Source of the DNA: Bacteroidota bacterium
GTDB taxonomy: Bacteria; Bacteroidota; Bacteroidia; AKYH767-A; 2013-40CM-41-45
Reading direction: 5' to 3'
DNA: 64,000 nt
Assembly: GCA_016721305.1 (NCBI GenBank)
Contig: JADKIH010000001.1
Location: 192,091-256,090, forward strand
A program made the translations under genes and the position numbers. Positions 10,016-48,817 of the stretch are shown here, piece by piece (position 1 is the first letter of the stretch; the number at the start of each line of letters is the position of its first letter). The notes beneath the pieces were generated by a model. That model saw only the letters and a program-made list of their open reading frames with translations. It was not told the DNA's origin and searched no databases.

Positions 10016-10046
10016 ATGATTTTATTTTCTGTAGGTTAATTACTGA

Positions 10047-14108: not shown

Positions 14109-14130
14109 CAGATAAGAGGGATTTTACAGA

Positions 14131-21300: not shown

Positions 21301-21870
21301 GAAATCAATGAACGCCATACCTTCATTATTACGCAGAAGGAAGACTTAGCCAAAGCGAAAGAATCGTTGCTCAAAACGATCGAAGAAATCGAGCTGACTG
21401 CAAAGGACAACTTCATGCAGGCCTTTACGATGATTCGCGAGAACTTCATCCACGTATTCCGCTCCCTCTTTACTCAGGACGATGATTGTGATCTGGTACT
21501 CATGGATCCATCGAATCCGACAGAAAGCGACGTACAAATCATTGCCAAGCCAAAAGGAAAACGTCCATTATCGATCAGCCAGCTTTCCGGTGGAGAGAAG
21601 ACGCTGACGGCTACGGCCCTCCTCTTCGGTATCTACTTATTGAAGCCGGCTCCGTTCTGTATCTTCGATGAGGTTGACGCGCCTTTGGATGACATGAACA
21701 TCGATAAGTTCAATAACATCATCCGCAAGTTCTCTAAGGACTCTCAATTCATCATCATCACGCACAATAAGCGTACGATGGCAGCTACCGACATCATGTA
21801 CGGTATCACGATGGTTGAGCAAGGAGTTACTCAGGTTGTACCGGTCGACTTAACTGAGATGGTTGAATAG
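18315..21870 (+). CDS. smc: Chromosome segregation protein SMC, broken into 3 consecutive ORFs (18315..19184, 19379..20515, 20419..21870)
   Basis: N-terminal Walker A (MRLTSLEIKGFKSFGDKV...GPNGSGKSNVVDSIRWVLGEQ), long coiled coils, C-terminal signature LSGGEKTLTATALLFGIYLLKPAPFCIFDEVDAPLDD. Confidence 0.85.
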
Positions 21871-22189: not shown

Positions 22190-23230
22190 CAAAAACATGC
22201 GAGTTCGCTTTTCGGGTGATGCCATTACGTTCCGGCAAATCCCGCGACCGCTTACTACCATTAGGTCCTTTAGGGCCTACCAATTCCGAATGCATTTTTC
22301 ACCTAAGGAATTCGACACGCGCAATCGAGATATACTGAAACTTTAGACTGCCGAAGCAATTGTCACATACGTTGCGCTAAAAGAGCTCGCCCCTAAAGGG
22401 GCTTCCTGTACGCGTGTAGTCCAGTGTTACCAAGAGTTCGGCCCTAAAGGGCCTGCTACTTCGAAACGCGCTCTTACAGTGGAATATCTTTACAGCTACA
22501 TTCCATGCAGGAATCTTTAAGCTATCGAAGAAATGGACACATACGTTGCGCTAAAAGAGCTCGCCCCTAAAGGGGCTTGCTATACGCGTGTAGTCCAGTG
22601 TTACCAAGAGTTCGGCCCTAAAGGGCCTGCTACTTCGAAATGCGCTCTTACAGTGGAGTATCCCTACGGTTACTATTCCATGCAGAGATCTTTACACTGT
22701 CGAAGAAATGGACACACGCTTCCGCTCAAAGAGTCCGCCAGAAATTCCAATAAGTTCCGGCAAATCCCGCGATCGCTTACCACTATTAGCCCCTTTAGGG
22801 GCGAACTCTCGGTAACAAGCATCTAAACGAAAACACTAAGCCCCTTTAGGGGCGAACTCTAAAAGGGGCTCGCTCTTCGCGTGTAGTTCGGTGTTACCAA
22901 AAGTTCGGCACTGAAGGTCCTGCTACTTCGAAATGCGCTCGTAAAGTGGAATATCTCCACGGCTATCATTACATGCATGGATCATTACTCTGTCGAAGAA
23001 ATGGACACACGCTTCCGCTCAAAGTGTCCGCCAGAAATACCATTAAGTTCCTGCAAATCCCGCGATCGCTTACCACTATTAGCCCCTTTAGGGGCGAACT
23101 CTCGGTAACAAGCATCTAAACGAAAACACTAAGCCCCTTTAGGGGCGAACTCTAAATGAACTCGCTGTTGACATGTAGTTCAGTGTTACCAAAAGTTCGA
23201 CGCTGAAGGGCCTCTTGCCTTCATCAGTAC
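22190..23230. repeat. Degenerate tandem-repeat array (2 units of ~182 bp, then 2 units of ~280 bp) rich in short GC hairpins
   Basis: Units begin acatacgttgcgctaaaagagctcgcccctaaaggggc at 22365 and 22547, and acacgcttccgctcaaag at 22729 and 23008. Each ends ctgtcgaagaaatggac. Hairpins GCCCC-TAAA-GGGGC, GGCCC-TAAA-GGGCC and GCCCC-TTTA-GGGGC recur. Confidence 0.75.
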
Positions 23231-23342: not shown

Positions 23343-23374
23343 AAAAAAAAAGAGGCCCTGAGGCCTCCTTTTCG
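23343..23374 (-). terminator. Rho-independent terminator downstream of the 23401..24640 gene
   Basis: gaggcc-ctga-ggcctc hairpin with a 9-nt T-run on the minus strand (A-run on plus). Confidence 0.6.
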
Positions 23375-23400: not shown

Positions 23401-24640
23401 TTACGGGTGAATGGCAAAAACACCGGCTGCATTATTTAAATCGAAATACGGATAGTCATTCGGATCTACGAAACCATCACCATTCAGATCAGACGCAAGA
23501 TAATCGCAGCATAGACCTGCTGAGTTTTCCGCATCGTAGATTGGATAGTCATTCGGGTCAACGAATTCATCCTGGTTGATATCTCCTGCATAGAGTGCGA
23601 ATACACTTGGCTCTACTTCAATAGCATTATCGCCCATTGTTGCTGAGCTCGAAGAAGTAAAGTCGATGCTTGATAAGGAACTGTTGATTGTAATCGGGTT
23701 AGCGCTCCACACCAAAACAGAATTACGATGCAGTACGGCTACGTAATAAGAGTTGCCTGGTAATAGCCGGAAGTGTAACCGAAGCTGTACCATCAACTTT
23801 GAGAACACCACGAACAGAAGCATCCACGATAGCCGGATTAGCTTCACGGTGTAACTCAACAGTAATACTATCGGCTTGTTCGTATGATACGCTCTTTACT
23901 GACTGATTCAACAATACGCTTTGCATTGTTGCTGAACCCATGTAGAATCCTTGTAGGTAAGCAGTCAATTGTAAAATTGGGAAGCAGTTTCCTGTATTGG
24001 CTAAAGTTGAAACCGGAGATCTGCCATCGGCATCCGATGTTGCATAAGTTTCCGTGTTGAATTTTGCTACACCGCCATAAGTACGTGCAGGGTAGAATAA
24101 TTCGTAGTTAGTCGTACAACCCGACTCTCTCCATGAGAAAGAAGTGCGCAGACGAAGAGGACTATTATTCTGTACGTAATTAAATTTCATGTCAGGCGTT
24201 GCGCAACCGAAGCTTGTAGAATTGGTTGCACGAATGCGTGCAATACGAACAGCATCAACATTTCCAACCAGTGTAGAAACACAAGTTGATGGTGATGGTT
24301 TCACATTGTAATTTACAGAGCAGTTGATCACCTTATCTGTAGAATTCCATTGATAACTTCCGTTATATCCCGGATAAGAAAGTTCAGAATAACCGGGCGC
24401 AGTCGACAATGCGAGTGTACCGCCGTTCCAAACTGAGTTAACATAGATCCCTGCCTGGAACGTACGCAAATCAAAAGAAGTGGTAGCTCCGCTGGCTTTA
24501 GCCATGATATCAAATTCATATATGCCTGGCGATATATACTGTGCATGATCAATATAAAATGACGCACTTGGATCAACAGCAAATGCACCACTTGCTTTCA
24601 TGATCGCTAGAGAAAGCAAAGTAAAAATCCTTTTTAACAT
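23401..24640 (-). CDS. Secreted protein (~410 aa, 2 overlapping ORFs) with a C-terminal dockerin/EF-hand-like module shared with the giant adhesin
   Basis: Signal peptide MLKRIFTLLSLAIMKASGAFA. C-terminus ...AYLQGFYMGSATMQSVLLNQ...YYVAVLHRNSVLVWSANP...GDINQDEFVDPNDYPIYDAENSAGLCCDYLASDLNGDGFVDPNDYPYFDLNNAAGVFAIHP is homologous to the C-terminus of the 31371.. ORF. Confidence 0.5.
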
Positions 24641-25283: not shown

Positions 25284-28200
25284 TTACTCAACTACAAGGC
25301 GAAGTGTTTGAGACTGGCCATCTTCAGCTGTTAAGCTAACCATGTACAATCCTTTAGCCACCTGGCTCATGTCGATTTCTTGAGTGTTGTAACCTTCAAC
25401 AGCAGTGATTACATCGCTAACGATAACATTACCTAAAAGGTCTGTTACTTTCACTACATATTTAGCTTTTGCACCTGCAGTGAATGCTACAGTTGCTTTG
25501 CCATTTGTAGGGTTAGGGAATGCTGTCAATTCAGTTGCAGTAGCCATAGCATCTTGAGCATCACGGCAGAACAAGCTTACGCTAACAGTTACACCACGGA
25601 GATGAAGCACCACAAGCATTCAATGCGTTAGCACGAACGATTGCTGATGAGCTCAGAGCTGTATTGTAGTAGTTAACGATAGCTGAAGTTCCAGATGGAG
25701 CGATTGAAGCACCACCAGTTACTGACCATGAGTAAGATGTTGCACCTGCTACCGGAACTAAGCTATAAGTAACCGCAGACTGTGATTTACAAACTGCTGT
25801 AGGACCTGTAACAACTGGAGGAGCAGGACGTGAAGTAACTGTGTAACAACGAGCAACACCTGAACCACAAGAGTTATTTGCAGTTACGCAAATGTTACCC
25901 TGAGTTGTGAATGCACCTGTGAAGTTAACAGTGATAGACAAGCCTGAGTTAGTAACGATACTAACACCTGCTGGAACTGTCCATGAGTAAGAAGTAGCAC
26001 CGGCAACAGCAGCGATTGAGTAAGTCACGTTAGACGTACCACAATTTGCGAAACCTGGACCAGTGATAGAACCCGGTTGAGTTGGAACGAATTTCACAAC
26101 GAATGAACGGCTATAAGTACCGCAACCGTTACCTACAGTGATTGTCACTGTTCCTGAAGTCCAAGATGGTCCCATTGCGAATGTAGCAGAAGTTGTTGTT
26201 GAAGTCTGACCTGATGTAACCAGAGTTGCACCACCTGTGATAGACCAAGTGTAAGTTGAAGCACCCGGTACTACAGGCATTGTGTAAGTAGCAGTGTTGT
26301 TAGCACATACAAACTGAGGACCCGTAACTGCATTAGAGTGAGTAGGGATACCTGTGATAGTCATACCACGAACCGGGCTAAGACCATAGCAGTTTGAACC
26401 ACGAACCTGGATTGAACCTTGTCCGAAACCTGCAGGAACTGAAACTTGAACTGTGTTAGTTCCCTGACCACTTACGATAGATACACCTGTACCGGTTACA
26501 GTCCAGATATAGCTAAGTGCGTTAGCAGAAGTTGTAGAGTAAGTATAAGTTCCAGGACCACAAGCTACAGCCGGACCAGAGATAACTGCCGGTTGAGAAG
26601 CGTAAGTAGCGATAACCGGAATGCTCATACAAGACTGTAAACCTGTACCACAAAGGTTAACCGCAGCTACACAGATGAATCCACCTGCATACGTGTTATT
26701 GAATGCTACAGTGATACTGTTTGTTGTAGAAGAACCAGTTGCGCCTCCAGGGAGTGACCATACATAAGATGTTGCACCAGCAACCGGAGCTACTGAGTAA
26801 ACAATACCTACTGAGTTACGGCAAGCACCTGATGGACCAGAGATCGCACCCGGAGTTGCAGGAGAACCACCTGAACCACCTACAGTAGCTGAAGCAGAAC
26901 CTGTACAACCGTTACCGTCAGTGATAATTACTGTGTAAGTTCCGATTGCAAGACCTGTTGCAGTTGCAGAAGTCTGACCATTTGACCAGAGGGTAAGTAT
27001 AAGAACCTGTACCACCTGTTGCACTTACAGTTGCAGTACCATCGCTACCAGCACAGCTAGAAGCTGTTGTAGTTGTAGTTCCTTCAACTTTAGCAGGCTG
27101 AGTTAATGTTACAGTTACAGAAGCTGAACAACCGTTAGCGTCAGTTACACTGTAAACTGCTGTACCTGCGAATTGAGTAAACACGCCTGTACCAACGTAA
27201 GCCGGTGTACCATCAGCTGCTGAAATAGTAACTGAAGTTGAACCACCGAAGCAAGCAATTGTTCCTGCAGAGTAAGAAGCAGTAAGAACAGCTACCGGAG
27301 CAGCTACGCCTGAACCTGGAGCAGAAGGACAACCATTAGCAGTTGCAGTTACTGTGTATGTACCTGCTGTGCTAACAGTGATACTAGATGTTGTTGCACC
27401 ATTGCTCCACAGTAATGAACCTGAAGCTGATGTAGACAATGTAGTCGTTGCATCACAGTTGTTAACCACAGTTACAACCGGAGTTGCAGGAGTTGGGTTG
27501 ATTGTCAACGCAAGGATCTCAGTGTGGCAACCTACTGTGTTAGTATAAGTACCAGATGCAGTATAAGTAGAACCGTTTACTGACCAAGTGTAAGTATCAC
27601 AAGCTGAAGCTGTAGTTGTGTTAGATGTACTTGGAGTGATTGTCAACACGAGGATTTCTGTGTGGCAACCTACTGTGCTAGTATAAGTACCTGAAGCAGT
27701 GTAAGTGTTACCGTCTACTGACCAAGTGTAAGTATCACAAGCTGAAATTGAAGTTGTGTTTGATGTACTTGGAGTGATTGTTAACACGAGAACTTCTGTG
27801 TGGCAACCAGTTACTACTGAATAAGTACCGCTTGCAGTGTAAGTTGTACCGTTTACTGACCAAGTGTAAGTATCACAAGCTGAAATTGTAGTTGTGTTAG
27901 ATGTACTTGGAGTGATTGTCAACACGAGGATCTCAGTGTGGCAACCTACTGTGTTAGTATAAGTACCGCTTGCAGTGTAAGTTGTACCGTTTACTGACCA
28001 AGTGTAAGTATCACAAGCTGAAATTGAAGTTGAGTTAGATGTACTTGGAGTGATTGTCAACACGAGAACTTCTGTGTGGCAACCTACTGTGCTAGTATAA
28101 GTACCGGAAGCAGTGTAAGTGTTTCCGTCAACTGACCAAGTGTAAGTATCACAAGCTGAAATTGTAGATGTGTTAGATGTACTTGGAGTGATTGTTAACA

Positions 28201-31200: not shown

Positions 31201-31282
31201 CACTCGACGTCGCCAGTCCCGTCAGAAAGACGAGAAGAGTCATAAGAACTCCTCTGGTGAATAAGTGCGTACTTGTTTTCAT
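25284..31282 (-). CDS. Giant (~2000 aa) T9SS-secreted repeat adhesin, 3 ORF pieces (26918..31282, 25582..27024, 25284..25619), with ~21 tandem 46-aa repeats, SprB-like Cys-containing repeats and a canonical T9SS type-A C-terminal sorting domain
   Basis: Signal peptide [28 protein letters not shown]. Repeat unit [46 protein letters not shown]. C-terminal [13 protein letters not shown]...[13 protein letters not shown]...[25 protein letters not shown] is the classic Por secretion CTD. Confidence 0.7.
27470..30390. repeat. ~21 near-identical 138-bp tandem repeats inside the adhesin coding sequence
   Basis: The DNA reads agtgattgtcaacacgag(g/a)a(t/c)ctc(a/t)gtgtggcaacc... with a 138-bp period; the protein period is 46 aa. 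Confidence 0.85.
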
Positions 31283-31370: not shown

Positions 31371-34300
31371 TTATGGATGGATTGAGAAGATACCAGCAGA
31401 GTTGTTGATATCGAAGTACGGATAATCATTCGGATCTACGAAACCATCACCATTCAAGTCAGTTGTAATGTAATCACAACACAAACCTGCTGAGTTATCG
31501 ATGTCATAGTACGGATAATCATTCGGATCTACGAATTCATCCTGGTTGATATCACCTGAGAAGATTGAATAGATACCTTCTAATAAATCATCAGCTGCCA
31601 TTCCACTCATAGACTGGATAGGATCAGTAGAGAAGTCGTAGCTAGCCGGTGTAGCTGTTGCTAATGCAACCGGAGCTGCAGACCATGTAAGAACTGAGTT
31701 ACGGTGACGGATAGCAATGTAATAGTTACCATCTAAGCCACTCACAACAGCTGAACATGTTCCATCTGTCATCAATACTGCCTTTGTAGAGCCGGCAAGT
31801 AAGAATGTATTCTCATCATAAATCTCAACAGTGATTGTGTCTGTCTCAAGACCTGTAGCACCTGCTACTGCCTGATTCGCCAATACCGGTTGCATTGTTC
31901 CTGCACCGATGTAGTAACCCTGGAGGTAAGCAACAAGGTCAATTTGCATTGGATTGCCACAAGGATCACCTGTAGAAGTTACATCAACACTGTTCGATAC
32001 TATTGAACAACCAAATGCATTCGTAACTGTGAAGCTGAATGAATATGGGTTAGCGAAGATGAATGAGAAGTTGCTGTTATCAACAAACAACGAGTTACCT
32101 GTTGAACCATCGAAGTCGTTCCATGCGATAGAAGCACCTGCGCCTGCACCTGTTGTGTCGGCATTCAGAGTTACGCTACCTGTAGCACACAGGATCGGAT
32201 TTCCACTTACAGAGATAACTGCAGTTGTAGGAGACGGATTAACCGTGATATCAGTCGACAATACTTGTGTACAACCGTTAGCATCAGTTACAGTTACTGT
32301 GTAAGTTCCAGCAGTTCCTGTAGTGATACACTCTGTAGTTTCAGATGAAGACCAAGAGAACGTGCTGTATGTAGCTGCAGGTAATACGCAGATACTAACT
32401 GTTCCTGGAGCACAAACTGAAGCCGCAGAACCGGTAGACAATGAAGCCGGAATCACAGTGAATACGTTGATAGTCTGAGAAGCTGTTGCTGTACAAGTAC
32501 CGTTAGCAACTGTCAGAGTATAAGTAGTTGTTGCAGTAGGGTTCACAGAAAGAACTTGTGAAGTACCAACCACGCTAACACCGTCTGACCAGCTGTAGCT
32601 AGTGTAACCTGCACCACCATCCAATGTTACGTTGCTACCACCACAAATTGTAGTTGCGCTAGGAACGATTGTAGGAGCTGTAAGTGGAGTGTAATCGATT
32701 GTTACACTTGCGCTGCTTGAACAACCTGTAGAGCTTGACGCCACAACTGTGTAAGTTGTAGTTGCTGTAGGACATGCATGTAATGTAGGACCTGTTACAG
32801 AACCCGGATTCCAAGTATAAGTGATTGGACTTCCAGTGATACCGTAAAGTTGCATGTTCGGACGCTGACTAAATGTATTGATTGTAGATGTCGGTGCGAA
32901 TGTCACAACACTACAGTTACCATCAGCATGTGTTTCTGCAGTTGAAACGAATGCAGTAGTTGATTGATTTACTACATCGTTATCTGCGAAGTCTGTACAT
33001 GCCGTTGTAGGACATGTTGCACAATTCACCAATGATACGTCAACGACTACGTTGCTTGTACCATTCCAGCTGAATGGAGTCGTGAAGTTGAATGTATTCC
33101 AACCTGTAGCACTGAAGTACGTTGCAGGATCAGTATACACTTGAGTCATACCTGAACTTACAAACGCTGCAGACATTGAAGTAGCTGAAGTTGCTGCCAT
33201 TGAAACCTGGAAGTTCATGACTCCATTAAGTGCTCCAAGAGAAACAACATCAAATCCTAATTTAGAGATTGGACCTGCTACCAAACCTTGAGCAGAAAGC
33301 TCAGATGCAAGGATCAGATACTGCTCGTGGTGAGCTGTCCAGAACTGACCCAATGGAGCCGGCTGACTAGACGTAGTATTCTGAACTGTACCTGTACCGA
33401 TAGTTACCGTTGCAGGAGCAGAAACTGTTGCACCAACAACTGACAGATCTACACACTCACCTACGTTACATACTGAAGTAGCAGTTGCACTGATTACCGG
33501 AGTTGCAGGAGTTTCATTTACATTGATTGTAATTGAAGCAACTTCCTGGCAAGTAGCAAATGTACCTGTTGTGTTATCTATTGCACCAACGAAGTAAGTC
33601 GTAGTTGCACTTGGAGTTACTGTGTAAGCAGCACCTGTGAAGATCACAGTTACGCCATCAGTTGACCAACCGTAAGTGTAGTTAGGATCGTTAGAACTTG
33701 TAGCAGTAAGCGTAAGAGTAGTACCTGAACAAATTGTGTTTGAAGGCGCACTGTTAGTAATTGTAACAGTTGGAGCCGGATTCACAGTTGCAGTTACGAA
33801 TTGACGACCTGCAGGATCTAAACATGTACCGTCGTAAGCAATTACCCAGAATGTAGTAGTTGATGTTACGTTCGTAGTATATGTTGCTGTGTTAGTTGCA
33901 AGAGGTGTACCACCTGAAGAGTTGGCATACCAGTCGAAGCTACCTACACCTGTTACGCTCATTGTTACTGAACCAAGACCACAACGTGTAGCGTTAGTTA
34001 CAGAAGTAATTGAAGGGCTTAATACTGTCACCAGAGCCGAAGCTGAAGTATCAGCAGAACCACTACATGTTACATAAGCACGGTAGTAAGTAGTTGCAGA
34101 GATTGAACCTGTAGTATACAGAGCAGAGTTAGCTCCTGAAATGTCAGTCCAAGTATCAATCAAACCTGAAGCAGATTCTTGCCATTGGTATGATGCACCT
34201 GAAGTTGCATTTGTTACAGTCAACGTTACCGGACCTGATCCACAGATTGTAGATGGAGATGCAGAAACCGTTGGTGTAGCAGGAGTTGCAATTACATCTA

Positions 34301-37300
34301 CAGTTACAGATGCAGTTGATGTACATCCTGTAGATGCATCAGTTGCTGTTACTGTATAAGTAAATGTGCCTGTAGAAGATGGAGTCACAACTTGTGTTCC
34401 ACCAGATAATGAACCCGGATTCCATACGAATGTAACACCAGGATTTGGAGTGATCAATGTGATTGCATAGTCTTCAGTTGAACCTGAACCCATTGCAAGA
34501 CAAGCGTCACCTGAACCGTTAGTATTACCATTCAGACGTGAACGGATACGCATTCCTGTTAAACCCGGAGAAGCAGTAACCGGTACGTTAATAGTAACTG
34601 TACCAGAAGCAGCTGAAGTCCAAGGTTGAACCCACTCAGAAGCGTCATAAACGCCATCACGGTTGTAGTCAATCCATACTGAGATGATTGATGTACCACC
34701 TGTAGCAAGTGTCATTGTATAAGAAGCGCCTGTAGCAAGTGTAGTTGTCTCTGTTCCAACCGGTGCATTCACATGATAGAATGGAGATACACAAGCAGGA
34801 GGAGTACTGTTCAATGTATTGATCTGAACAGAAGTTACACAAGAAGAACCGGCATTAGTTACTGTACAGTAACCTGAAGGAAGAGTATTCGGTCCGATCA
34901 GATCAGATGTAGCAAATAATGTAGAGCTTGATCCTAAACAGATAGTTGAAGGAGTAGCTGATGCGGTATTGATTACCGGAGGAGCTGTTGTCGTTACAAC
35001 TACTGAAGATGTAGTTACACAATTGTCATCAGCATCAGTTGCTGTTACAGTATACGTGAATGTACCGCCTGCAGTTGGAGTAACTGTTACAGGAGAGCCT
35101 GACATTGAAGTCGGGATACCTGAACCTGATACAGGGAAGGCTGTCCAAACATATGTATACGTATTCGTTGAACCTGTCTGTGTTGCAGTCAAGTCGAATG
35201 AACTGTTACCACAAGCTGAAGAAACGCTTGATGAAGCTGTTACTGCATCCGGACTACTTACTGTCTGAACTACCGGTGTACGGAGTGACTCGCAAGTACC
35301 ATCGAATTCTGCTACATAGAATGTAGTTGTAGAACTGATTGTGTAAGCTGTAAGAGTTGCACCTGTTTCACCTGAAATTGGAGTACCACCTGTTGGAGTC
35401 AAGTACCAGCTGAATAAACCACCTGAACCTGAAACTGAACAATTTGGAATACCAACACCACACTGATTGTTATCAGTAGCAGTTGGAGCAGAAGGAAGTG
35501 GATTCACTGTTACATCAACTGTTGCAGTTGAAGTACAACCTGAAGCCGGATCTGTTGCAGTTACAGTGTATGTAGTGTTAGATGTCGGATTCACAGTAAC
35601 AACGTTTCCGCTGCTGAGTGATCCCGGACCCCACTGCCATGCATATGAACCTGCACCTGAAGTAGTAGCATAATTTATGCGAACGTTATCAATTGCCCAT
35701 CCTGCGTATTCAACGCTTGTATCAGATGTGAAACGGAAACGTACACGGAATGTAGTTGCTGAACTTACTGAAGCAAGACTGATAGTCTCATGTTTCCAGA
35801 AACTAGTTGCAGGACCTGCAGGGTAAGTTGAAGCTGAACCGGTAAATTGAGCTGACCAGTCTGCATAGCTACTAGTTTCCCAACCAATCGCACCTGCAGC
35901 TACCATATCCGGAGACAATGTACCGGCACCTAAGTAAGCAGCAAGAGGGAAGTTCAACCAAGTTGCACCACCGTTGAGTGAGTACTCGATGCGACCATAG
36001 TCGAATCCGTTCTCAGAAGCACAGATATGCCAGAATTCAAATGTCGGACTAGATAATGTACTTAAGTTAACGTCAGTTGTCATTGACAAGCTTCCGTCAG
36101 CTGAAGGTACATAAGTATTCTTAGCCGATGCAGCACCTTCCTGGAAGTATGTTCCATTCAATGCCCAAGTCACACCTGTTCCGCTTGTAGCGAATGATGC
36201 AGGGAATGTCTCGAAGCCTTCGTGGAATGATGAACCTGCAGGTAAGCCTGTAAGTGCTGTAAGCACTACATCTGAACCTGAACATACTGTACTAGGACTA
36301 GCTGTAGCTGAAGTGATGTTTGGTAATCCTGTTACAGTTACCACTACCGAAGAGGCTGTTACACAACCGGCAGTTGCATCAGTGGCAGTTACAGTGTAAG
36401 TATAAGTACCTTCTGCAGTCGGAGTCACAGATACAGGTGAACCTGTTTCTGATCCTGAAATACCGCTGCCTGTTGAAGGACTAGCAGAGTATGTTAATAC
36501 ATAAGTGTTTGTAGAACCTGTTTGTGTTGCAGTCAATGTGATTGCCGAACCTAAACATGTTGGTGAAGAAGCTGCCAGAGATATTGCATCCGGATTAGTT
36601 ACTTCTGCAATTACTTCTGCACGTGGACCTTCGCATGTACCATCGAATTCTGATACATAGAATGTTGTTGTAGAAGATACTGTGTAAGTAACCAATGAAG
36701 TTCCTGACTCACCTGCGATTGGAGAACCGCCTGTAGAAACAGTATACCAACGCATGATACCACCTGAACCTACTGCAGATGCCATTGGCACACCAACACC
36801 ACACTGTGTAGAGTTAGTAGCTGTAGGAGCTACAGGAACAGGGTTAACTGTTACGTCAACTGTTGCAGTTGATGTACAACCTGATGCAGGATCTGTTGCA
36901 GTTACTGTGTAAGTATTAACACCAATAGATGAAGGTGTTGCAGTTACACTGTTTCCTGACAATGAACCAGGATTCCATGTCCATGTATAAGTACCAGGAC
37001 CTTGACCGCCTGTCATCGCACCAAACGTCATAATCGGACGTGAAGTTGATGTTGAGCTACCAGTTGCATCTGTGCAACCTGTTGTAGTACCTGATCTATG
37101 AGTGTTTGCATTGAAACCAACGGTTTCAGTAACTATTGTTGCAGTTCCTAAAACGCTGTTTGTCTGACAAACATTGATCAACAAGTTAGATGTACCATTC
37201 CAGAAGAACGGAGTTGAGAACGTGTGTACGTTCAATCCTGCAGATACAGGAGTGAAGCTCGCAAGAGTGTACACAGATGTCAATGACGTTGTCTCGAATG

Positions 37301-40300
37301 TAGTCGACAATGCGGTAGCACTTGTATTAGCCATACCGATTTCGAAGTTAATCATCGTACCTGTAGAACCGGCTGTTGTAGTGAAGGCAAGACTAGTGAT
37401 ATTACCAGGTGCCATTCCCGCAGCAGTTAATTCGCTGGCAAGAACTAAGAGTTGAGATCTGATTTGGTTACCACCACCGTTACCAGAACGATATGGGTTA
37501 CCTTCATTTCCACCGATTGAACCTGTACCTGCACCACCTGTACTTACTGTACCCGGAGCGAAGTCGTTAGTCAATCCCTGTTAATGTTGTAGACTCACCT
37601 AAACAAACTGTGCTAGGAGATGCTGTAGCAGAACCGATAAACGGAGCTGCACCAACAACAACAGTCACAGAAGAAGACGCATTACAGAATCCGTCAGTTA
37701 CATTGAGCGTATAAGTATACGTTCCTGCTGCTGTCGGAGTAATTGTAAGAGCTGTGCTAGGCACATACGAGCCTGTCAATGGAGTAGTAATTCCACTTCC
37801 TGTTGAAGGCGAAGCAGATAATGTATAATCTATCCAAGGATAAGGGAGTGTACCGTCTGTCATAGTAAGAGTAACAGTACCACCTTGACATGCCGGACTT
37901 GTAGCTGAAAGAACCACATTACCTGCATCAATTACATCCTGGAATACGGCAACACGTGCACCTTCGCAAGTACCATCGAATTCAGATACATAGAATGTAG
38001 TCGGAACTGAGATTGAGTAAGCTGTAAGTACTGTGCCCGACTCACCTGCAATCGCTGTACCACCTGTTGGAACAGTGTACCAACGCATTAAACCACCTGA
38101 ACCTACTACTGTACAAGTTGGAACACCAGGTCCGCACTGAGCATTGTCAGTTGCAGTTGGAGTTGCCGGTAATGGATTAACCGTTACAGTTACGTTCGCG
38201 AAGTTTGAACAAACTCCGTCGTTCGCTTCTACTGTATAAGTAGTAGTTGTTGTAGGAGTTACAGTTACAGTATTTCCTGACAATGAACCAGGATTCCAAG
38301 TCCATGTAAGTGAACCGGCACCTGTTGTAAGTGTCTGAGCACCGAAACGCATGTTTGGACGAACTGAGTTAGATGTCGTAGCTGCTGTAACTAATTGAGG
38401 GTTACAACCTGCTCCATCTGAATAGTAGTAACTGTGTGAAGTAAATGCAGTTGTTGTATTGTTTACAACGGCATTCTGAGTGTATGATACACCGCTACCT
38501 GTAGTATTACAAGTTGTACTTGCAGGACCAACACAAGAAGGACAATCACTGAATGTGATATCAATCAGGACATTCGAAGTACCATTCCAGAAGAATGGAG
38601 TCGAGAATGAGTGACTTGTCCAACCTGCTGTAGGGTTGAAGTTACCTACTGTGTAAACCTGAGTAGCACCTGTTTCGAATGTTAATGAAGCAGTAGTACT
38701 TGCTGTGTTCTTCATTGAAATCGTGAAGTTTCCATAACCAAGTGCATTTGTATTGCTCACAACGTCGAAACCTAATGATGTGATGTTACCTGCATACATT
38801 CCTGAAGCTGAAAGCTCAGAAGCAAGAACAATCATTTGGTGACGGTTACCTGTGTAGTAGTTACCATAAGGAGGCATGTTTGTAGTAGTAGAAGTACCGT
38901 TTTGGAGTACGCCTGTTCCTACTGTAACATCACCTGCGGCAATAATCGGTGTTTGTGCTGTTAACACTACTGATTCACCTGCACAAATTGTAGATGGAAC
39001 TGCAGTGATAGAGCTGATAGTCGGAGGTGTAGTTACTGTTACCACAACCTGAGCTGTAGTAGCACAACCTGAACCTGCGTCATTTGCATTTACCGTATAA
39101 GTGTAAACACCACCGGCAGTTGCCTGAATAGTCTGAGAAGCACCAGTCAACGGAGTAGTAATACCGCTATTTGCTGAACTTCCAGTCCATGAATAAGCGT
39201 AGTTTGGATCATTTGTACTTGTTGCATCCAATGTAAAGTTAATGAACGGACAAGTTGTTGATACAGTTGATGTAGCTGTAACAGCAATTGGAGATGTTAC
39301 CTCTGCTATTACTTCTGTACGTAAGCTTTCACATGAACCATCGAATTCAGAAACATAGAATGTTGTAGTCGATGAAATTGTGTAAGCTGTTAAATGATCT
39401 TGCGACTCACCTGAAAGTGGGCTACCACCTGTTGATGCAAGGTACCAACGGAATAAACCGCCTGAACCTGTTACTGCACAACCCGGGATGGCTGTACCAC
39501 ACTGAGTTGAGTTAACTGCAGTTGGAGCAGCAGGAAGTGGATTTGTATTCACTACTACCGAAGCTGTAATTGAACAACCATTTGCGTCTGTAGCGATCGC
39601 AGTGTAAGTTGTTGTTGCAGTTGGCGTTACTGAAACCGATGCACCTGTACCTACTGTAGAAGTACCATCTGACCAAGAGAATGTTACTGTTGGAGCTGTG
39701 TTAGCTGCAAAAGTGAATCTTGGACGACTAGTACCTGTGCCTGTAGCTGTAGTAGAAGCTAGCATTGTAGCAGGAGTTTCAGAATCTGCCTGACGGTAAG
39801 CTGAGCATGTGAAACCAGGAGCATCAACTTTCATTGTTGAACCTGTAGCAGTTGTTGCAGCCGGTACACTAGACCAAGAAACAGATACAAGGATATTTGA
39901 TACTCCGTCCCATGTCCAGCTTGAGCTTGAACCGGCACCGGTACCGAATGTGAATGTATTTACAGTGTTTGCTACCGGTGTAATTGCGTCGTTCACACCT
40001 GTACCGAGGTAAACCTGAGTAAGACCAGTAGTTACAAAGGCAGTTGTCATTGCTGTCAACGATGTTGAAGCAAGGCTAACTGAGAAACCATTGTATGTGG
40101 TACCGGATGTTGTCGGTTCGTAAGAGATCGCTGTGATAGGACCTGCACTTACACCAATAGCAGCCAATTCCGATGCCTTGATAATGTATTGTGTTTTAGC
40201 ACCACCCCAACCTCCTGGTAAGAAGGAAGCAGCTGTAGATGCGGATGTGGATGCACCTGCACCAAGAACTGCATTGCCTGGTTTAGAAGCAGCAGAAGAT

Positions 40301-43300
40301 AAAGTAACTGACTGACCTAAACAAACCGGATTTGGAGTTGCACTTGCCGTAGCAGTTGCGCCTAACATTGGCTCATCTGCATAAGATGTTCCTGTGATAG
40401 ATGGAGTATAAACTCCGTCTGTAGCAACAGCAGAATAAGTAACTGTAGCGTTAACCGGTGTAGTAGCTGCAGGAATTGTTCCTGTCCAGCTAGTAGGACC
40501 ACCTGTCATTGCAACAGTTGTTGGTGTACCACCATTATATGCATAAGTAAGGTTAACACCTGTAACCGGAAGAGCTCCGTCTACAGTTGTAACTGTAATT
40601 GTACGAGCTGTAGCTGTACATGCTATACCTGATGGACTCGCAGAAATTGCAGTAATCGCAGGTTGAACCTGTGTACCTGCAAATTCGTCAGCACCGATAT
40701 CCGGAGTTGTTCCGCGTGTATCGCCATCGAAGTCAGTTGTAACACCACTGATAGTAGCAGCACCTGATTCAGCAGCTGTAGAAGCACCTGCAGTGAAATG
40801 CAAGAATGTTGAAGCTGAACCTGTAGTACTTGCGAATGTTGCATTCTCAAATACTGACGCTTGCTCACGTGGAGCTAAACCAGCCAACACTTTGTAAGCT
40901 GCTAAAGTAGCCTGAGCTGCTGTTCCGTCGTAATAAACCGGAGTCGTAGCTGTACCACCTGTGAAATACAAGTTGTTGTTAGATGTAGAAGCAAATGCTG
41001 TAAATGTTGCAGCAGCTCTTCTGAAACCAACAGCCAATGATGTACCGCCTGCGTTCAAGCCGTTATAGATGATGTTGTTACGTAAGTTAACAGAACCAGG
41101 AGTTACTGTAGCGCTTACACCTGAACTACCGCCTGAAGTTGTTCCAGACAAACGGATAGTGTTGAAGTAAACATTTACTGTTGAACCACCTGTTAAGCTA
41201 ATACCCATGATAGCATTTGTACCGGTTGCACCAACTGAGTTGAGGTTACCGATGATGTTATTACGGAGAGTAACAGTTGTACCTGAAGTAACAGACATAC
41301 CTGTGATTGTAGAAGCACTACCACCTGCCGTAAGGTCATAAACCTTGTTGCTAGAATAAGTTGCAGTCAAAGATGCAGAAGAAGTAATACCTGTAATTGT
41401 ACCACTGCTGGCTGCTTGCAATGTTGCTAAGCCTGCAACTGTGTTACCACTTACTGTACGTAATGTTGTAGCAAGTGTATTGTTCACAATACCGCGAATA
41501 GAATGAGTTGAAGTTGAAGCACCACCTACTGTTAAGTTAGTAATTGTGTTGTTTGTAACTGTCTCATCTGTTGAAGAACCTGCGTTAGAGAAACCGGTGA
41601 TTGTACCGACACCAGCAGACAACGCTGTAATTGTGTTATTGTTAATTGTATTACCTGTGAATGTGTAAGCTGTTCCGGAAGCTCCAGAAACAACAGCACA
41701 GTTCATTGTACAAGCAAGAGCACCACCTGCGATAACGTTACCTGTGATGGTGTTGTTATCGTAGTGATTCACACTAGCTGGAGTAGCAACAGAGCTAGAA
41801 CCGGCAGTGTATGTTGTCATAGTACCGGTTGAAGTCTTAGTGTTGTTAGTAATAGTGTTATTGCTAACGGTAATTGTACCAGGTGTACCTGTATTGGCAA
41901 TACCTGTGAATGTTCCTGTTCCTGATAATGAGTTAGTAGAAACAGTATTGAATGTCATTGTAACATTCGCATTCGTACCTGTTAAACCTGAAGTGATACC
42001 TGTGAATGCAGCAGTTGTTGCAGCAGACAATGTACAGTTCTGAACTGTGTTATTGCTGATGCTTGCTGTATTACCTGTACCTGAAGAACCCCAAGTGATA
42101 CCGATTACGGCACCGGTTGTAACTGCCGGAGATACAGAAACAGTATTACCTGTGATTGAACCGTGTGGACCGCTACCACCGTTGATACAAGTTAATGCAC
42201 CTGTGTGAGCAGCTGAAACACTGTTGATCTGGTTATTGGAAACTGTGATAGCACGGTTATCAGCGAATGATACAACAGTACAAGCAACAGTACTACCACC
42301 GAAGTTAGTGAAAGTGTTACCTGATACTGTATTCAATGTATCGTTTGTGCTAGATGTACCTGAAGCTGCCGTAGCTGCATTGAAGATAACACCACCGTAA
42401 GTATTCGTGATTGTGTTATTTGTGATGCTTACTTTGTTACGGAAGGCCTGGATACCTGCTGCATCACCTGCTACTCCACCATATGTAAATGTTGTAGAAG
42501 CAAGATCTGTAGTGTTTGCAACACGTACACCGATTGCAGCTGTATTAGCTTTATTTAATGTGATTACACCATTTGTGTAAACTACATCGTTAGATCCATT
42601 TACGTTATCGCATTTGTAAACACCAAGACCTGCTTCCATTTCTACTGTAGCAGATGCTGTATTACCGTCGAACAGGTCGATACCGTCGAAAGTAATGTTA
42701 TCCATACCAACAACGTCAACGACGTCATCCGTAAACGTACTTCCCGCACCCGTACCTACACCTGCACTGATCTTCGCATTAGCACCGGCACCTGCTTCCA
42801 CAAACGTTACTGTTTGTGTAGGACCTGATTGTAAACCTGAAGCGAGAGCACACATCTTGAACACGATACCTGCTGAAGGAGCTGTTTCAGTGTAACCTGC
42901 TGCAACGTTGAATACAACGTTACCTGCAACACCTTTAGTATTCAAGTCGTTTGCTGCAGCTGCGAAGCTTGCATAGTTTGAACAACCTGAACCACCAATA
43001 GTATATGTTCCTGAAAGCGGACCACTTGGAGAGATCACAACCGGAGCTGAAGTAGCTGAACATCCTACTGAACTTGTTACAGTTACAGTGTATGAACCTG
43101 TTGTTGAAGTAGAGTAAGTAGCTGCATTCGGACCTACTGAAGTAGTACCATTCAATGTATAAGCGTAAGTAGTAATTGTCTGTGGACTTGCAGAAGCCGT
43201 TGTTGTCAACGTTGCACTGCTTCCACCTAACAATGTTGTACAGTCAGCAGCAAGTGATACTGTTGGAACTGTACCTACTGTTAATGTAAGTGAAGAAACC

Positions 43301-46300
43301 GCTGCAGCACAAGAACCTGCTCCATCCGGATCGTCTGTAGTTAAAGTAATCGTAACTGAACCTGCTGCGATATCGGCAACAGATGGAGTGTACGTTGTAG
43401 CTGTACCGAATACATTCGATGGATTGAATGTACCTGTACCGCTTGATGACCATGTAGCTGTTGTAGCTGTACCACCGATAGAACCGCCTAATGTATAGTC
43501 ACCACCGCAAATTGTTGCGTTAGCACCTGCAGAAGCAGTTGCCGGAGTTGTACAAGGGCTGATAATAAATGATGCTGCAATTGTATGATCTGCTGCGATA
43601 GCTGTAAATGTGTATGAACCAACAGCACCTACAGAAACTCCGTCAACCAGAACGTCATCAACTTGATAACCTGCGTCAGGAGTGATAGTAAATGAAGGTG
43701 ATGTACCACAATCAACAACTACAGCACCTGACGGAGCAATTGTTCCGTTTGATCCTGCAGAAGCAGTAACAGTGTATTGAATCATAGTTACAACAAATGG
43801 AGCTGAAGTAACAGCACAACCATCAGTAATTACGTCTACTGTATAAGAACCACCTGCGGTTGCTGTATAAGTAGCATTTGTTTCACCGCTGATAGGGTTA
43901 CCGCTTTCGTTCCACTGATATGTTGTAGTTGCACCTGAAGCAGTTGCAGTTAATACTGAAGGACTACCAGTACAAATTGTTGAACTTGTTCCTGAAACGC
44001 TTACTGATGCATTATTAACAGTAATAGTTGCTGTTCCTGAATTTGAACAAGAACCGATAGTAGCAGTTGCAGTATAAGTAGTTGTTGAAGTCGGAGTTAC
44101 CGATACACTTGCAGTTATGTCTGAAGTGTTTGGTGACCATGACCAAGTTGGATTTGTAACTGAAGAATAAGTAAAGTATGTATTCAGACGGTTAGCGCTA
44201 GTTGTAGCTGTTGGATTCATTACAGTAGCAAGATCCGAAGTAGCGCTTGTAGTAGATGTTGTAGCATATACTGCAGTGTTACCGGAAGTAGCTGTGTAAT
44301 ATGTCTGAGCATTGTTGATATTGTCAACACCATCCTGACGAAGATCGACTAAGAGGTTTGAAGTACCATTCCAAGCATAAGGAGTTGAGAAAGTGATCAC
44401 GTTGTTTCCTACTGCATGACTGTATGTTGCAGGACCGTAAACCAATGACAAACCTGATGTTGTGAATGTAGTCAATGTTGATGTACCAACTGTTCCCATG
44501 TAAACACGGAAGTTAGTTACATTCGTATTATCACCTAATGTTGTGATATCGAATCCGATTGAAGTGATGTTGCCGGCAAAAATACCTGCAGCATTCAATT
44601 CAGCCGGTGTAAACACCATCTGGCACCAGTACTGAGCCCAACGGTTACAGAAAGCTGTAGGTTGAGAAGTAGAACCGGACAACGAAGTTGCTGTTCCTAC
44701 AACACCTGCTCCTGATGAACCGATTGTACCACCCGAAGCAACTAATGTCTCAGCCGATGTTCCGCAATGTAATGCAGAAGCCGGAGTGATAGTTACTGCT
44801 GAAGGAGTAGCATTTACGGTTACAGTTGCTGTTGCTGTTGTGTTACAACCAGAACCATCTAACGCACTTACTGTGTAAGTAGTAGTAGATGTTGGGCTAA
44901 CACTATAAGAAGCAGCAGTTGGACCACCTGTCCAAGTGTATGTATAGTTCGGATCGTTTGAACTTGTTGCAGTCAAAGTTGTGCTCTGACCGTTACAAAT
45001 TGTTGTCGTTCCGCCGATAGATACTGATGGAGGTGCGTTTACTGTAACGATTACCTCAGTACGCGGTGTACTTTCACATGTTCCATCGAATTCTGTTACA
45101 TAGAATGTAGTTGTAGCAGAGATAGAAGTTGTGTAAGTAGCCGATACTCCCCGATTGAATTGGTGAGCCTCCTGTAGAAGCTGCATACCAACGGAAATTC
45201 GGTGTTCCTGCACCTGTTGTAGAAGTAACAGAAGCTGTTGGAACGTGAGGACCGCACTGTGTTGAGTTAGAAGCTGTCGGAGCTGATGGAAGCGCTACTA
45301 CAGACACAGAAGCTGTGCTTGCAGAAAGTGTACAACCATTTACATCCGTTGCAGTAACCGTATAAATAGTAGTTCCTGTTGGAGTTACTGTTAATGGGCT
45401 ACCTGTTCCAACTGAACTTGTTCCGTATGACCATGCAAATGTTAAGCCTGAAGCAGCTTTAACACCTGTCCATGTGAATTTCGGACGGTTTGAGTTCGGA
45501 GTTGAAGATGAACCACCTGATGGAGTTCCAGTTGTTCCGCAGATAGTCGCAGATGTCTGACTATCTTGCTGCCAGCCGAAGTTACATACATATGAAGCAA
45601 CATCATATTTGATAGTGCTTGATGATGATGTAGTAAGGCCTGTGCTCCAGCAGAAGCTAACAACGATATTTGATGTTCCGTTCCAGTTGAATGGAGTTGA
45701 GAACGTAAGTGTATTTACACCTACTGTCGGAGTATAGCTTGCACTTGTATAAACGTCAGTCAAACCTGAGAAGAAGCTGTTAGTCATTACAGTGTTAGCT
45801 GTAGAACCGATGCTTAATGCTAAATCAGGGTAAGCCTGACCTGAAGTTGTTGCTTCAAATGATAAAGCTGTGATGTTACCGGCAGACAAACCTGCTGCAG
45901 TAAGATCAGAAGCTCTGATTAGGTATTGAGTTTTTGCACCACCCCATGATCCAGGGAACATTGTTGTTCCGAGTGATGAAGATGTGCTTGCGCCTGCTCC
46001 AAGAGCAACCGTACCATTTTGAGTAGCAGCACCTGTTAAAGTAGTTGTGCTACCTGTACAAACTGTGAGCGGAGAAGCGGAAGCCGAAGCAGAGTAACCT
46101 GTTAAAGGCTCGTCCTGATAAGAAGTTCCTGTCAACGAAGCATTCAGTGGAACGCTGTTAGTTGCAGTTACGCTCCATGTTACAACAGCATTCACAGGTG
46201 TACCGACAGGTATTGTTCCAACCCAAGTGTTACCTGATGAATTTGTCATTGTAATAGGAGACTGAGCAGTACCATTAAAACTGTAGTTTAATACTACTCC

Positions 46301-48817
46301 TGTAATTGTTCCTGAAGGAGTTGTTGCATCAACGCTCACGTTACGTGAAGCTGCTGTACAAAGATTTCCTGTCGGAGAAATTGTAAGACTTGCCAATGCC
46401 GGAGCCGGAGAAGTTCCTGCGAACTCATCAGCACCTGCATCAGGTGTAGTTGCATTACGTGTATCACCATCAAAGTCATCAGTAATGCCTGCAACTGCAG
46501 CACCAATACTTTCTGCTAATGTAGAAGCAGCAGGTGCGAAGTGAAGGAATGTAGAAGATGAACCTGTAGTACTTGCGAATGTGCAGTTTTCTGTGTTAGA
46601 AGCCTGATCACGTGTTGCAGCTAATGTTTTGAAGCCTGCAAATGTATAAGCAGTTGTTCCATCATAATATACTGTGCTACCGTAGAACAAGTTGTTGTTA
46701 GAAGTTGCACCGTAAGATGTAAGAGTCGTAGTTGAACGACGGTAACCAACTGCCAAACCGGCACCGGCTACGCTTGAATTGTTAACGAAGATGTTATTAC
46801 GTAAAGTTAACGCCGGAGTCGTAGAAGCAGAAATAGCGCTTGATCCGAAGAGAGCGCCTGAACTTGAACCTGCTAAATAAACTGTATTGTAATATGCGTT
46901 AACCGTTGTACCACCGGCTACGTTAAGACCTACTACCGGATTGGCAGCATTGGCAGCAGTAGCACGGAGATCTCCGATTAAGTTATTTTGAACAGTATGC
47001 AAAGTTCCGGAGTTAATAGCGATACCATTAATAGTACCGGAAGCATTGCTCGAAGAAAGATCATAAATCTTATTCTTCGAAATTACACAGCTCGTTGGAG
47101 CTGAAGAAGTGATGCCCTGAACTGCCGAAGCACCCGTACTGGCAAAACCGCCAATCGTGTTTCCTACGACTGTTGAAGAAGTTCCTGAAGAACCAATAGT
47201 GATACCGGTAATGGCTCCGCCGCTGGTAATACCTGTAATAGTATTTCCGCTAACCAAATTGCCATTTCCACCTTGAGCACCACCAAAGCTTGAGTTGATA
47301 CCAACGATTGTGCTTGTACCACCAACGATGCTGCTAAATGTATTATTCGAAATATTGTGGTTAACTGAACCACCATCGGTATTATTATAAATGTAATAGC
47401 CGTTGCACCTGTAACTGTCATGTTAGAGAAGTTGTTACTGCTCCAGCTGAACGTTCCAGTTGTAGAACTACCACCTGTCGTAATACCTGTAACAGTACCA
47501 CCGGCGCCTGTTTTATTGAAAGCAGTCACAATTGAGTTACTGTTGATATTTTGTGTACCACCTGCAACTACTGTTATACTATTACTAATAAAAGTAAAAC
47601 TACCTGTTGTACTTGTAGAAAGGTTGGTAAATGTGTTACTATTAATATTAGTAGTTGTAATTGCTGCTGCAGAACTTATTGCTGTAATACTTCCTGTTGC
47701 AGCTACTGTATGATTTAGAGCCGTAAAGTTGTTATTACTAATAGACAAACTTGAACCACTAATAAATGACGTACCTGACACAATAATACCATTTAATGTA
47801 CCTGTTACTCCTGGAGTCACAGCTATGGCATTATTGTTTATTGTATTAGTCGAAGTCGTAGTTGATGCAACAGTATAAGCAATAAGGTTGATACCAGTTA
47901 CTGTTCCACCCACTGTTATACCGCCATTTGAACTTGTCAGCGTATTATAAGAAACGTTTACATTATAAGAGTTACGGATAAGGATACCATTCATAGTACC
48001 GGAAACGTTTACATCACCTGAGAAGGTTGATGTTGTTCCCCAATTAGTGATCGAGTTCCCCTGACCGGCAGATGTACCACCGATATCGATTCCATTGTTC
48101 TGATCAGCTGCAGCTAGTGGTCCGATTACGCAGATACCAAAGTTAACGTTGCTGATCGTGTTTCCATAAACTTTCAAACCACTGTTACCCCAGCTGTTGT
48201 AGTAGCGGATGCAGAAGTAGTGATCGTAGTAGCCGAGTGCGTCGAGTTACTGTAGATACCCCAGGTGTTCTGGTAAGTTCTGTTTAAGGTAATTGTGTTG
48301 TTTTGAATAGTGTTGTTCTGCGCACCATTCGTTGTACCGTTGTAGAACAAGGCTACACCAAATTCCGTCATGTTGTTCGTGCCGGCAGCTGTAGTTGTGT
48401 TCGTACCCAGCTCACTCATTGCGAAGTCCTGGATGGTAATCCAGTCACCGCCGACGATCTTGAAGATCGCATCGGTTAAACTTCCCGCTGTTTGAGCAGG
48501 GGCGGTATTGTACTAGAGCTACCGCTGATGACGATTGTGTTCGTCGAAGTTCCGGTAGCCGTAATAGAATAACCGCCTGCAGGTGCTGTTTCATTACCCG
48601 TGAGGGTGATGGTAACAGGACCCGTAATCGTCGCAGCGTTCAACGCTGTGATGGCGTCGGCAAGACTAGTGTAGGTTGGAGCAAGTCCGGAACCCGAATT
48701 AGTCGTTACCTGAGCATCGGCTTGTGATGTGAACAAGCACAACGCTACGCAACTCGTCAAGAGCAGCCAGCGTGTAAACGCTGATGCCCTCTTGGTAGGG
48801 TAATTGTTGTTTTCCAT
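31371..48817 (-). CDS. Giant (~5800 aa) surface adhesin in 6 ORF pieces: signal peptide, parallel beta-helix (NNTITN) region, many Ig-like ~90-aa repeat modules, an internal large duplication, and a C-terminal dockerin-like module
   Basis: Probable start MENNNYPTKRASAFTRWLLLTSCVALCLFTSQADA (ATG at 48817..48815). ORF pieces 48476..48949, 48174..48419, 47164..48177, 45074..47257, 37567..45213 and 31371..37574 overlap end to end. Recurrent module P.A..QCG.G.P...V.GSGG..RWY...TGG.PI.GESG..L..Y.ISSTTTFYVSEFDGTCE..R. Beta-helix stretch NNTITGNV...NNTITAL. Confidence 0.6.

Follow-up and report, generated by a model that had tools for sequence, protein, structure and literature searches.

An X-dockerin-like C-terminal module and an adjacent candidate receptor gene in Bacteroidota with a type IX secretion system

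The stretch analysed here, referred to as the window, comprises 64,000 nucleotides of a contig from a Bacteroidota bacterium (JADKIH010000001.1, positions 192,091 to 256,090). On its minus strand lie the genes of a giant adhesin, of a protein with a type IX secretion system (T9SS) sorting domain, and of a small secreted protein. The giant adhesin and the small protein end in the same tail of about 190 residues, which is best explained, from its predicted structure, as an X-module–dockerin dyad (X-dockerin), i.e. a beta-sandwich rigidly packed on a duplicated Ca2+-binding F-hand dockerin. The gene between the two encodes, at its N terminus, a domain here called the T-domain, which is a candidate receptor for this tail. 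The features are listed below; open reading frame (ORF) pieces arise from frameshifts, and bit scores of the module refer to a hidden Markov model (HMM).

31371..48817, minus strand: giant adhesin gene, about 5,800 residues in at least five ORF pieces; signal peptide MENNNYPTK...ADA, followed by Q, at 48817
31374..31955, minus strand: X-dockerin module of the giant adhesin; sandwich from about 31943, dockerin 31556-31374; 253.8 bits
25284..31282, minus strand: partner gene directly downstream of the giant adhesin gene, in three ORF pieces; ortholog in locus L001
30641..31201, minus strand: T-domain (subtype ii), candidate receptor of the X-dockerin module, found with jackhmmer and hhalign
25287..25619, minus strand: ORF piece with the partner's T9SS type A C-terminal sorting domain (TIGR04183, 46.2 bits, cut-off 23)
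24640..23401, minus strand: small secreted protein gene, 412 residues once the frameshift is repaired; signal peptide, T-like N-domain, X-like beta-sandwich, dockerin
24578..24640, minus strand: Sec signal peptide of the small protein, MLKRIFTLLSLAIMKASGAFA followed by VD, from reading the sequence
23978..24577, minus strand: N-terminal cysteine-containing domain of the small protein, about 200 residues; T-domain homologue by hhalign
23650..23977, minus strand: X-like beta-sandwich of the small protein, LTAYLQGFY...YYVAVLHRNSVLVWS; frameshift inside; predicted local distance difference test (pLDDT) above 90 in the model
about 23761-23764, minus strand: +1 frameshift in the small gene, one base extra or two missing; break between module-HMM profile positions 76 and 78
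23404..23586, minus strand: dockerin of the small protein; F-hand loops DINQDEFVDPND and DLNGDGFVDPND with a helix after each, LCCDY linker, terminal IHP
23343..23367, minus strand: intrinsic-terminator-like hairpin GAGGCC-CTGA-GGCCTC, then a T run, 3' of the small gene's stop codon

The module common to the small protein and the giant adhesin

The original prediction was that a signal-peptide protein of about 410 residues, present as two ORF pieces, carries the same dockerin-like C-terminal module as the giant adhesin, and that its passenger domain is unrelated to that of the adhesin. The two pieces overlap (24640-23723, 305 residues, and 23859-23401, 152 residues), and skipping one base joins them into a 412-residue protein; the module HMM likewise matches in two parts, with 62 bits at 23977-23765 and 155 bits at 23763-23404. 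A lipobox cysteine is absent from the signal peptide as read from the sequence. The frameshift is most likely an assembly or sequencing error, since two further window genes, dnaE and smc, are broken too and since an ortholog of the same architecture, with the LCCDY motif and a terminal SIHP, is unbroken in a contig of a short-read metagenome-assembled genome (MAG; L016). A programmed frameshift is rejected on the same grounds.

The module is co-linear between the small protein and the adhesin ending at 31371, and all peptides quoted in the original prediction are present. In the six-frame translation of the window, CCDY and IHP before a stop codon occur exactly twice each (23511 and 23412 in the small gene, 31481 and 31382 in the giant gene), and the module HMM likewise detects two modules, no more, across the 64 kb. 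With BLASTP, the distal piece of the small protein matches the giant C terminus with 59% identity over 125 residues (E=5e-49), while the proximal piece matches it with 30% identity over 219 residues (E=7e-15), an alignment that covers the beta-sandwich plus part of the passenger. All remaining high-scoring segment pairs have E>=0.042, which bears out that the two passengers are otherwise unrelated.

Identity between the two modules differs by part: 48 of 104 positions in the beta-sandwich (46%), 3 of 22 in the linker (14%), and 51 of 62 in the dockerin (82%). The similarity is thus not confined to the D/N-rich loops. DNA identity amounts to 77%, and synonymous differences affect 22 of the 51 conserved codons. 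This argues that purifying selection, not recent conversion, lies behind the dockerin identity; gene conversion as its origin is rejected on the strength of this divergence. The combination of a dockerin at 82% and a sandwich at 46% identity with synonymous divergence is also taken as evidence of selection on a specific interface. The dockerin of the small protein is nearest to that of the giant adhesin, and its sandwich is nearest to proteins of other lineages.

Fold, spread and carriers of the module

An AlphaFold2 model of the giant adhesin's module (200 residues, built from a 98-sequence alignment) reached a pLDDT of 95 and a predicted TM-score of 0.90. It consists of a beta-sandwich (residues 7-113) followed by two loop-helix repeats, and the helices after the Ca2+ loops (residues 150-162 and 181-192; pLDDT above 90) form a compact two-helix dockerin. 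In a Foldseek search of the PDB, the four best matches were clostridial type II X-module–dockerin dyads (4u3s_B, 1.2e-5; 4fl4_C; 5g5d_B; 3kcp_A), each aligned over 190-200 columns, and all lower-ranked matches cover the sandwich alone. Target-normalised TM-scores of 0.61-0.68 against the 156-157-residue chains of such dyads (Foldseek) agree with an X module packed upstream of the dockerin.

The dockerin-like nature of the tail, as first proposed, also stands at the level of sequence. Both loops follow the canonical pattern D-x-N-x-D-x-x-x-D-x-x-D, and the Ca2+ ligands are intact: in alignments of 98 and 55 sequences, conservation at D1, N3, D5, D9, and D12 is complete or reaches at least 90%, and the two loops of the small protein are present in both window proteins. 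For 52 of 55 members, the best-scoring Pfam family is Dockerin_1 (E<=1; best E=3e-7), several relatives score above its gathering threshold, and the family profile matches solved dockerins at E=1.8e-6 to 2e-3. Matches of the profile to X-module chains are weak and lie largely over the dockerin part (2b59_B, E=0.037; 3kcp_A, E=0.13). No Pfam family matches the beta-sandwich, and no Pfam or NCBIfam model matches the module as a unit, a sub-threshold Dockerin_1 being the sole match in both libraries. Nor does the module match the profiles of T9SS C-terminal domains (CTDs) of type A (TIGR04183 / PF18962) or type B (TIGR04131 / PF13585 CHU_C).

Type II X-module–dockerin dyads of cellulosomal scaffoldins (Clostridium thermocellum CipA and A. 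cellulolyticus ScaA; PDB 2b59, 3kcp, 4fl4, 4u3s, 5g5d), in which an Ig-like sandwich is packed on a C-terminal dockerin with two F-hands, are the only solved architecture matching both halves of the module; within cellulosomes, they anchor a large scaffold to a cell-surface receptor protein. The module differs from them in several respects. Identity is about 15% and TM-scores are about 0.5-0.65; the host here is a Gram-negative bacterium with a T9SS instead of a Firmicute with SLH-domain anchors; the carriers are proteases, nucleases, and adhesins rather than a cellulosome scaffoldin; and no cohesin is recognisable by sequence. Moreover, the two repeats of the module are near-identical at the recognition positions, a hallmark of dual-binding type I dockerins and not of type II. 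With type I dockerins (PF00404) and cohesins (PF00963), the module shares a duplicated 12-residue Ca2+ loop plus helix in internally symmetrical repeats, residues at positions 10-11 that are common within an organism and variable between organisms, and an apparent service of many ligands to few receptors. Unlike type I dockerins, the window copies fall under the Pfam threshold and the dockerin is obligatorily fused to a beta-sandwich, and unlike type I cohesins, the candidate receptor has no Cohesin match.

Positions 10-11 of the loops, the classical cohesin-contact pair, are the same in both repeats in 55 of 65 modules (shuffled sequences: mean 7.9, maximum 17). Among paralogs of one genome they are uniform—GN in 7/7, GF in 7/7, GL in 3/3, and PN in 2/2, the last in the window—and genomes differ from one another. 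As read from these alignments, the classical recognition positions evolve in concert within genomes.

The module belongs to a large family. An exhaustive profile search returned 17,161, 9,910, and 3,414 representatives of clusters built at 50% identity at E<=1e-3, 1e-10, and 1e-30, respectively, the first of these tiers probably including dockerin-only matches. Among 140 listed representatives (180-4,586 residues), the module ends within three residues of the C terminus in 136, and two or more copies occur in six; in 86 of 98 aligned homologs it ends exactly at a conserved proline. A family-wide C-terminal unit, as a sorting or anchoring domain was predicted to be, is therefore what was found, and of the two functions anchoring is favoured because some proteins carry extra copies: in P0151, P0153, and P0155, the second copy either directly follows the signal peptide or forms a tandem.

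When one genome per species was scanned, at least 187 module loci were confirmed. Of 80 of these, about a dozen bear labels that seem wrong (Bifidobacterium, Saccharibacteria), and the others are assigned to Bacteroidota (Flavobacteriales, Chitinophagales, or unclassified Bacteroidota). Cultured Flavobacterium strains account for three loci, and more than one copy occurs in several genomes. The labels Bifidobacterium, Saccharibacteria, and Dolichospermum stand on MAGs (L031-L062, CAZSUF01; L067, CAZMGK01; P0106) with up to eight X-dockerin loci of Bacteroidota type, and are probably taxonomic mislabels or the result of binning contamination. Apart from these doubtful labels, the family is probably confined, within the genome sample scanned, to Bacteroidota that possess a T9SS.

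Passengers of the module include M36, M12B, and M14 peptidases, endonuclease I, and proteins with leucine-rich repeats, beta-helix, GEVED, HYR, or SprB-repeat regions. In one M36 peptidase (P0168), positions 4-775 of 869 match NCBIfam NF038113, 'T9SS-dependent M36 metallopeptidase', with 866.9 bits; a PKD domain follows, and then the module, in the place where the type A sorting domain would stand. NCBIfam also distinguishes T9SS-, rhombosortase-, and myxosortase-dependent M36 peptidases and 'choice-of-anchor' domains, and P0168 resembles these in having the module in the place of the tag; those tags, however, are short processing signals for sortase-like enzymes, whereas the module is predicted to be a folded binding module of 190 residues. 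Another carrier (P0156) has a choice-of-anchor Z repeat scoring slightly under its cut-off.

Two further groups of proteins may be mentioned here. P0152 (1,313 residues) and P0162 have three to five tandem, divergent X-dockerin-like units ('LQGP...VDW[IV]xVE[IL]R...HRNHL...GDxDxNGxID'), which suggests that the unit belongs to a wider superfamily that is used internally too; the tail of P0152 resembles, by eye, an ordinary T9SS type A sorting domain, and a Pfam scan at E<=1e-3 listed no Por_Secre_tail. In a family of proteins of about 260 residues (P0012, P0013, P0029, P0095, and others), the X-dockerin is preceded by a signal peptide and a short 'IASAGG...TQGF[EQ]QP' domain. Members in L083 and L084 adjoin tail-fibre-like Peptidase_S74 proteins, and in L081 and L082 the upstream neighbour is without a Pfam match.

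The adjacent T-domain gene and the rest of the window

The giant adhesin contains at least nine Ig_7 'CHU_C-associated' domains and one GEVED domain, and no T9SS CTD, including CHU_C, was found in it. The partner encoded directly downstream is built in the order signal peptide, T-domain, an SprB repeat plus tandem cysteine-containing repeats of about 70 residues, PKD_6 domains, and a T9SS type A sorting domain. The T-domain forms its mature N terminus of about 170 residues and is matched by no curated Pfam or NCBIfam family.

The X-dockerin and T-domain genes are tightly paired. In a jackhmmer search, 11 of 75 informative loci have an ORF with an N-terminal T-domain as the next same-strand ORF downstream of the X-dockerin gene, at a spacing of -9 to 392 nucleotides, and the pairing is also found in the window and in L085. 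Conversely, when metagenome contigs were searched for the T-domain alone—with a sub-alignment of subtype i, the complete T-domain alignment being too divergent—an X-dockerin module ended 100-200 nucleotides upstream in each of the five recovered loci whose contigs extend upstream. In L089, 2 nucleotides separate the pair. The shortest partners (281-282 residues) consist of nothing but a signal peptide, the T-domain, and a Por_Secre_tail scoring 32-46 bits, and in L072 and L051 such a partner follows a gene for an M14 carboxypeptidase with an X-dockerin. An all-against-all clustering of neighbouring ORFs at 50% coverage did not pick up the partner gene.

Three T-domain subtypes match three dockerin helix motifs (D[YF][ST]xWE, D[YF]Px[FY][DE], and D[FY]Lx[ML]DP) in 17 of 18 pairs, and the split runs across the genus Flavobacterium, where L046 is unlike L028, L051, L061, and L072. 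A repeat of about 22 residues with cysteines, LACYxTAxFNxxxCxWDVxGTQP, is the passenger of an X-dockerin protein in one and of a T-domain protein in the other of L089 81-3893 and L014 6956-8809; the two kinds of protein seem to draw on a common pool of stalk repeats.

The small protein is tied to the same pair of genes. The order giant X-dockerin gene, T-domain/type A cargo gene, small protein gene is conserved in L001 and L085. The original observation of one module on two unrelated passengers stands as far as the sharing is concerned, but the small protein is more than a chance second carrier: its gene is conserved in the neighbourhood of the giant one. Its N-domain aligns with the T-domain alignment in hhalign (probability 94.9%, E=4.8e-8, 118 columns), and by this profile comparison the two are homologous; BLASTP of the N-domain against the partner's N terminus gives no match, the homology being visible only with profiles. 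The N-domain has no Pfam, NCBIfam, or PDB sequence match. It has about 30 homologs, most of them proteins of 330 residues with the N-domain and the sandwich but without the dockerin, so that the module consists of two separable parts.

Frameshifts are frequent in the window, at about ten per 64 kb; dnaE, smc, the T9SS cargo gene, and the giant adhesin gene (1780-4940, 18315-21870, 25284-31282, and 31371-48817) are all split, and numerous further ORFs are broken. ORF-based annotation of this genome is therefore unreliable. The closest genome match among those listed, an apparently long-read MAG with 'tig'-named contigs (JADJFC01), is likewise rich in frameshifts. The intergenic sequence at 22219-23213, which separates the 3' end of smc from the terminator of the small gene, contains a tandem array of units of about 293 nucleotides, of which 22569-22861 and 22862-23154 are 91% identical, with partial copies on either side and inverted repeats of 56-73 nucleotides inside; no tRNA was found in this array.

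A three-gene cluster at 8948-17862 (minus strand) encodes a PorV/PorQ-family protein that does not reach the equivalog cut-offs of PorV, PorQ, and PorV2, a 1,353-residue protein with no more than a weak PorZ-like match at its C terminus, and a 1,243-residue protein with CarboxypepD_reg, Plug, and TonB-barrel regions. Just upstream of the giant gene, at 49457-51094 (minus strand), is the gene for a 545-residue protein with a weak match to Wzi (capsule assembly), ending in GANIGF as is typical of outer-membrane beta-barrels, and a polyprenyl glycosylphosphotransferase-like gene follows at 51250-52410.

Docking and its alternatives

The reading preferred here, with a probability of roughly 0.55, is that the tail is a Ca2+-dependent docking module which tethers secreted proteins without a CTD to the T-domain of a surface-anchored partner exported by the T9SS. 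Enzymes and adhesins exported via Sec and lacking a T9SS sorting domain carry the X-dockerin at their extreme C terminus, and the dockerin would bind the T-domain of the partner. This partner is itself predicted to leave the cell through the T9SS, and its type A sorting domain presumably holds it at the surface. In this way, the giant adhesin—or elsewhere M14, M12B, and M36 peptidases and nucleases—would become attached end-to-end to a stalk on the cell. The small protein may act as an adaptor or extender, with its T-like domain binding one dockerin while its own X-dockerin docks elsewhere. The T-domain is accordingly proposed to be a functional analogue of cohesin.

A more far-reaching version of this docking scheme, put forward only tentatively, is that X-dockerin and T-domain form a cohesin–dockerin-like coupling native to Bacteroidota with a T9SS, in which CTD-less proteins are displayed on, and possibly co-exported with, type A cargo, and in which T-like plus X-dockerin adaptors extend or branch the assembly.

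Several points weigh against docking. The T-domain bears no cohesin signature in Pfam or among PDB sequences: a PDB profile search gave it only insignificant matches to CBM3 (E=0.73) and ICAM-3 (E=0.26), and gave none at all for the small protein's N-domain. Pfam Cohesin likewise matched none of the window proteins tested, neither the T-domain nor that N-domain, and these represent a fraction of the genome only. A structural model of the whole small protein does match CipA Coh9-X-DocII best (2e-8, about 400 columns); its N-domain, however, reaches a pLDDT of only 50-80, which makes the match a hint. Identity of the N-domain or the T-domain with cohesin thus has no support from sequence and survives only through this low-confidence model. 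The window dockerins stay below the Pfam gathering threshold of 22.9, with 12.9 and 15.4 bits. Only about 15% of X-dockerin genes have an adjacent T-domain gene, and both the gene pairing and the co-variation of subtypes could stem from co-inherited cassettes rather than from physical contact. The small protein's role may be independent of docking, as most of its relatives are without the dockerin. Finally, the docking scheme does not account for the export of the CTD-less proteins.

In the foremost alternative, the module is a third class of T9SS C-terminal export signal, read by the translocon or by a PorV/PorP-like shuttle, with the T-domain gene encoding an accessory factor. The module equals T9SS CTDs in position, kinds of passenger, and phylum. 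It stands at the C terminus of 136 of the 140 representatives, with a conserved terminal proline; in the 'T9SS-dependent' M36 peptidase it is found where the type A CTD would be, and it ends an adhesin rich in CHU_C-associated Ig_7 domains; confirmed genome matches are, doubtful labels aside, in T9SS-bearing orders of Bacteroidota; and its carriers have signal peptides and no other evident way of crossing the outer membrane. Type B CTD proteins have PorP/SprF-like partners (PMC11611037), an arrangement that the module's dedicated neighbour gene recalls. However, the module shares no sequence similarity with CTDs of either type and has twice their length, and it closes with a helical dockerin where known CTDs are beta-sandwiches. 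Copies behind the signal peptide or in tandem (P0151, P0153, P0155) do not suit a terminal signal, and neither do the internal units of P0152 with its type A-like tail. Recognition dipeptides that are specific to each genome would suit a variable partner better than a conserved translocon. An export signal is therefore considered unlikely.

Slightly less probable still is a Ca2+-stabilised structural or glycan-binding unit (for capsule, lipopolysaccharide, or substrate) that has no protein partner, the T-domain gene being merely that of a co-regulated surface protein. Dockerin-like and EF-hand modules without cohesins are widespread, and dockerin-like ones are already on record from outside cellulosomes. 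Among the proteins tested, none showed a cohesin-like sequence, 85% of X-dockerin genes are without an adjacent T-domain gene, and a Wzi-like gene and polysaccharide synthesis genes lie close by. A unit without a partner would, however, leave unaccounted for the concerted evolution of the classical cohesin-contact positions within genomes, the agreement of dockerin and T-domain subtypes in 17 of 18 pairs, the reciprocal gene pairing in 5/5 loci, and minimal partners that hold nothing beyond the T-domain and a sorting domain.

That the two window modules resemble each other trivially, through low-complexity loops rich in D/N or through a duplication or gene conversion that took place locally and recently in this genome, is refuted, for although the genes lie 7 kb apart and have dockerin halves that are 82% identical, the similarity spans the beta-sandwich, conserved codons have diverged synonymously, and the module has thousands of homologs, including a small-protein ortholog with the same module in another MAG.

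No description of the X-dockerin module or of the T-domain cassette was found in the literature searched on dockerins and the T9SS. The tail and its adjacent candidate receptor gene point to a mode of surface attachment that has so far gone undescribed, and what is somewhat favoured as new is docking of the dockerin type in a T9SS setting, through a candidate receptor whose sequence is not that of a cohesin. Besides the T9SS CTDs, the family points to a third module at the C terminus, about as abundant and borne by the same sorts of passenger; its proteins are annotated merely as 'hypothetical' or 'dockerin type I domain-containing', and it comes with a specific candidate receptor that is itself T9SS cargo.

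If the pairing is physical, it would explain how CTD-less proteases, nucleases, and adhesins of several thousand residues are retained on the surface of Flavobacteriales and Chitinophagales, and would extend assembly of the cohesin–dockerin type to Gram-negative, non-cellulolytic settings. Surface display would gain orthogonal docking pairs, of at least three subtypes, and the annotation of thousands of metagenomic proteins would become better. Should the more tentative scheme of a native coupling hold as well, a surface 'scaffoldin' logic would have evolved independently of clostridial cellulosomes, with a possible hitch-hiking route through the T9SS.

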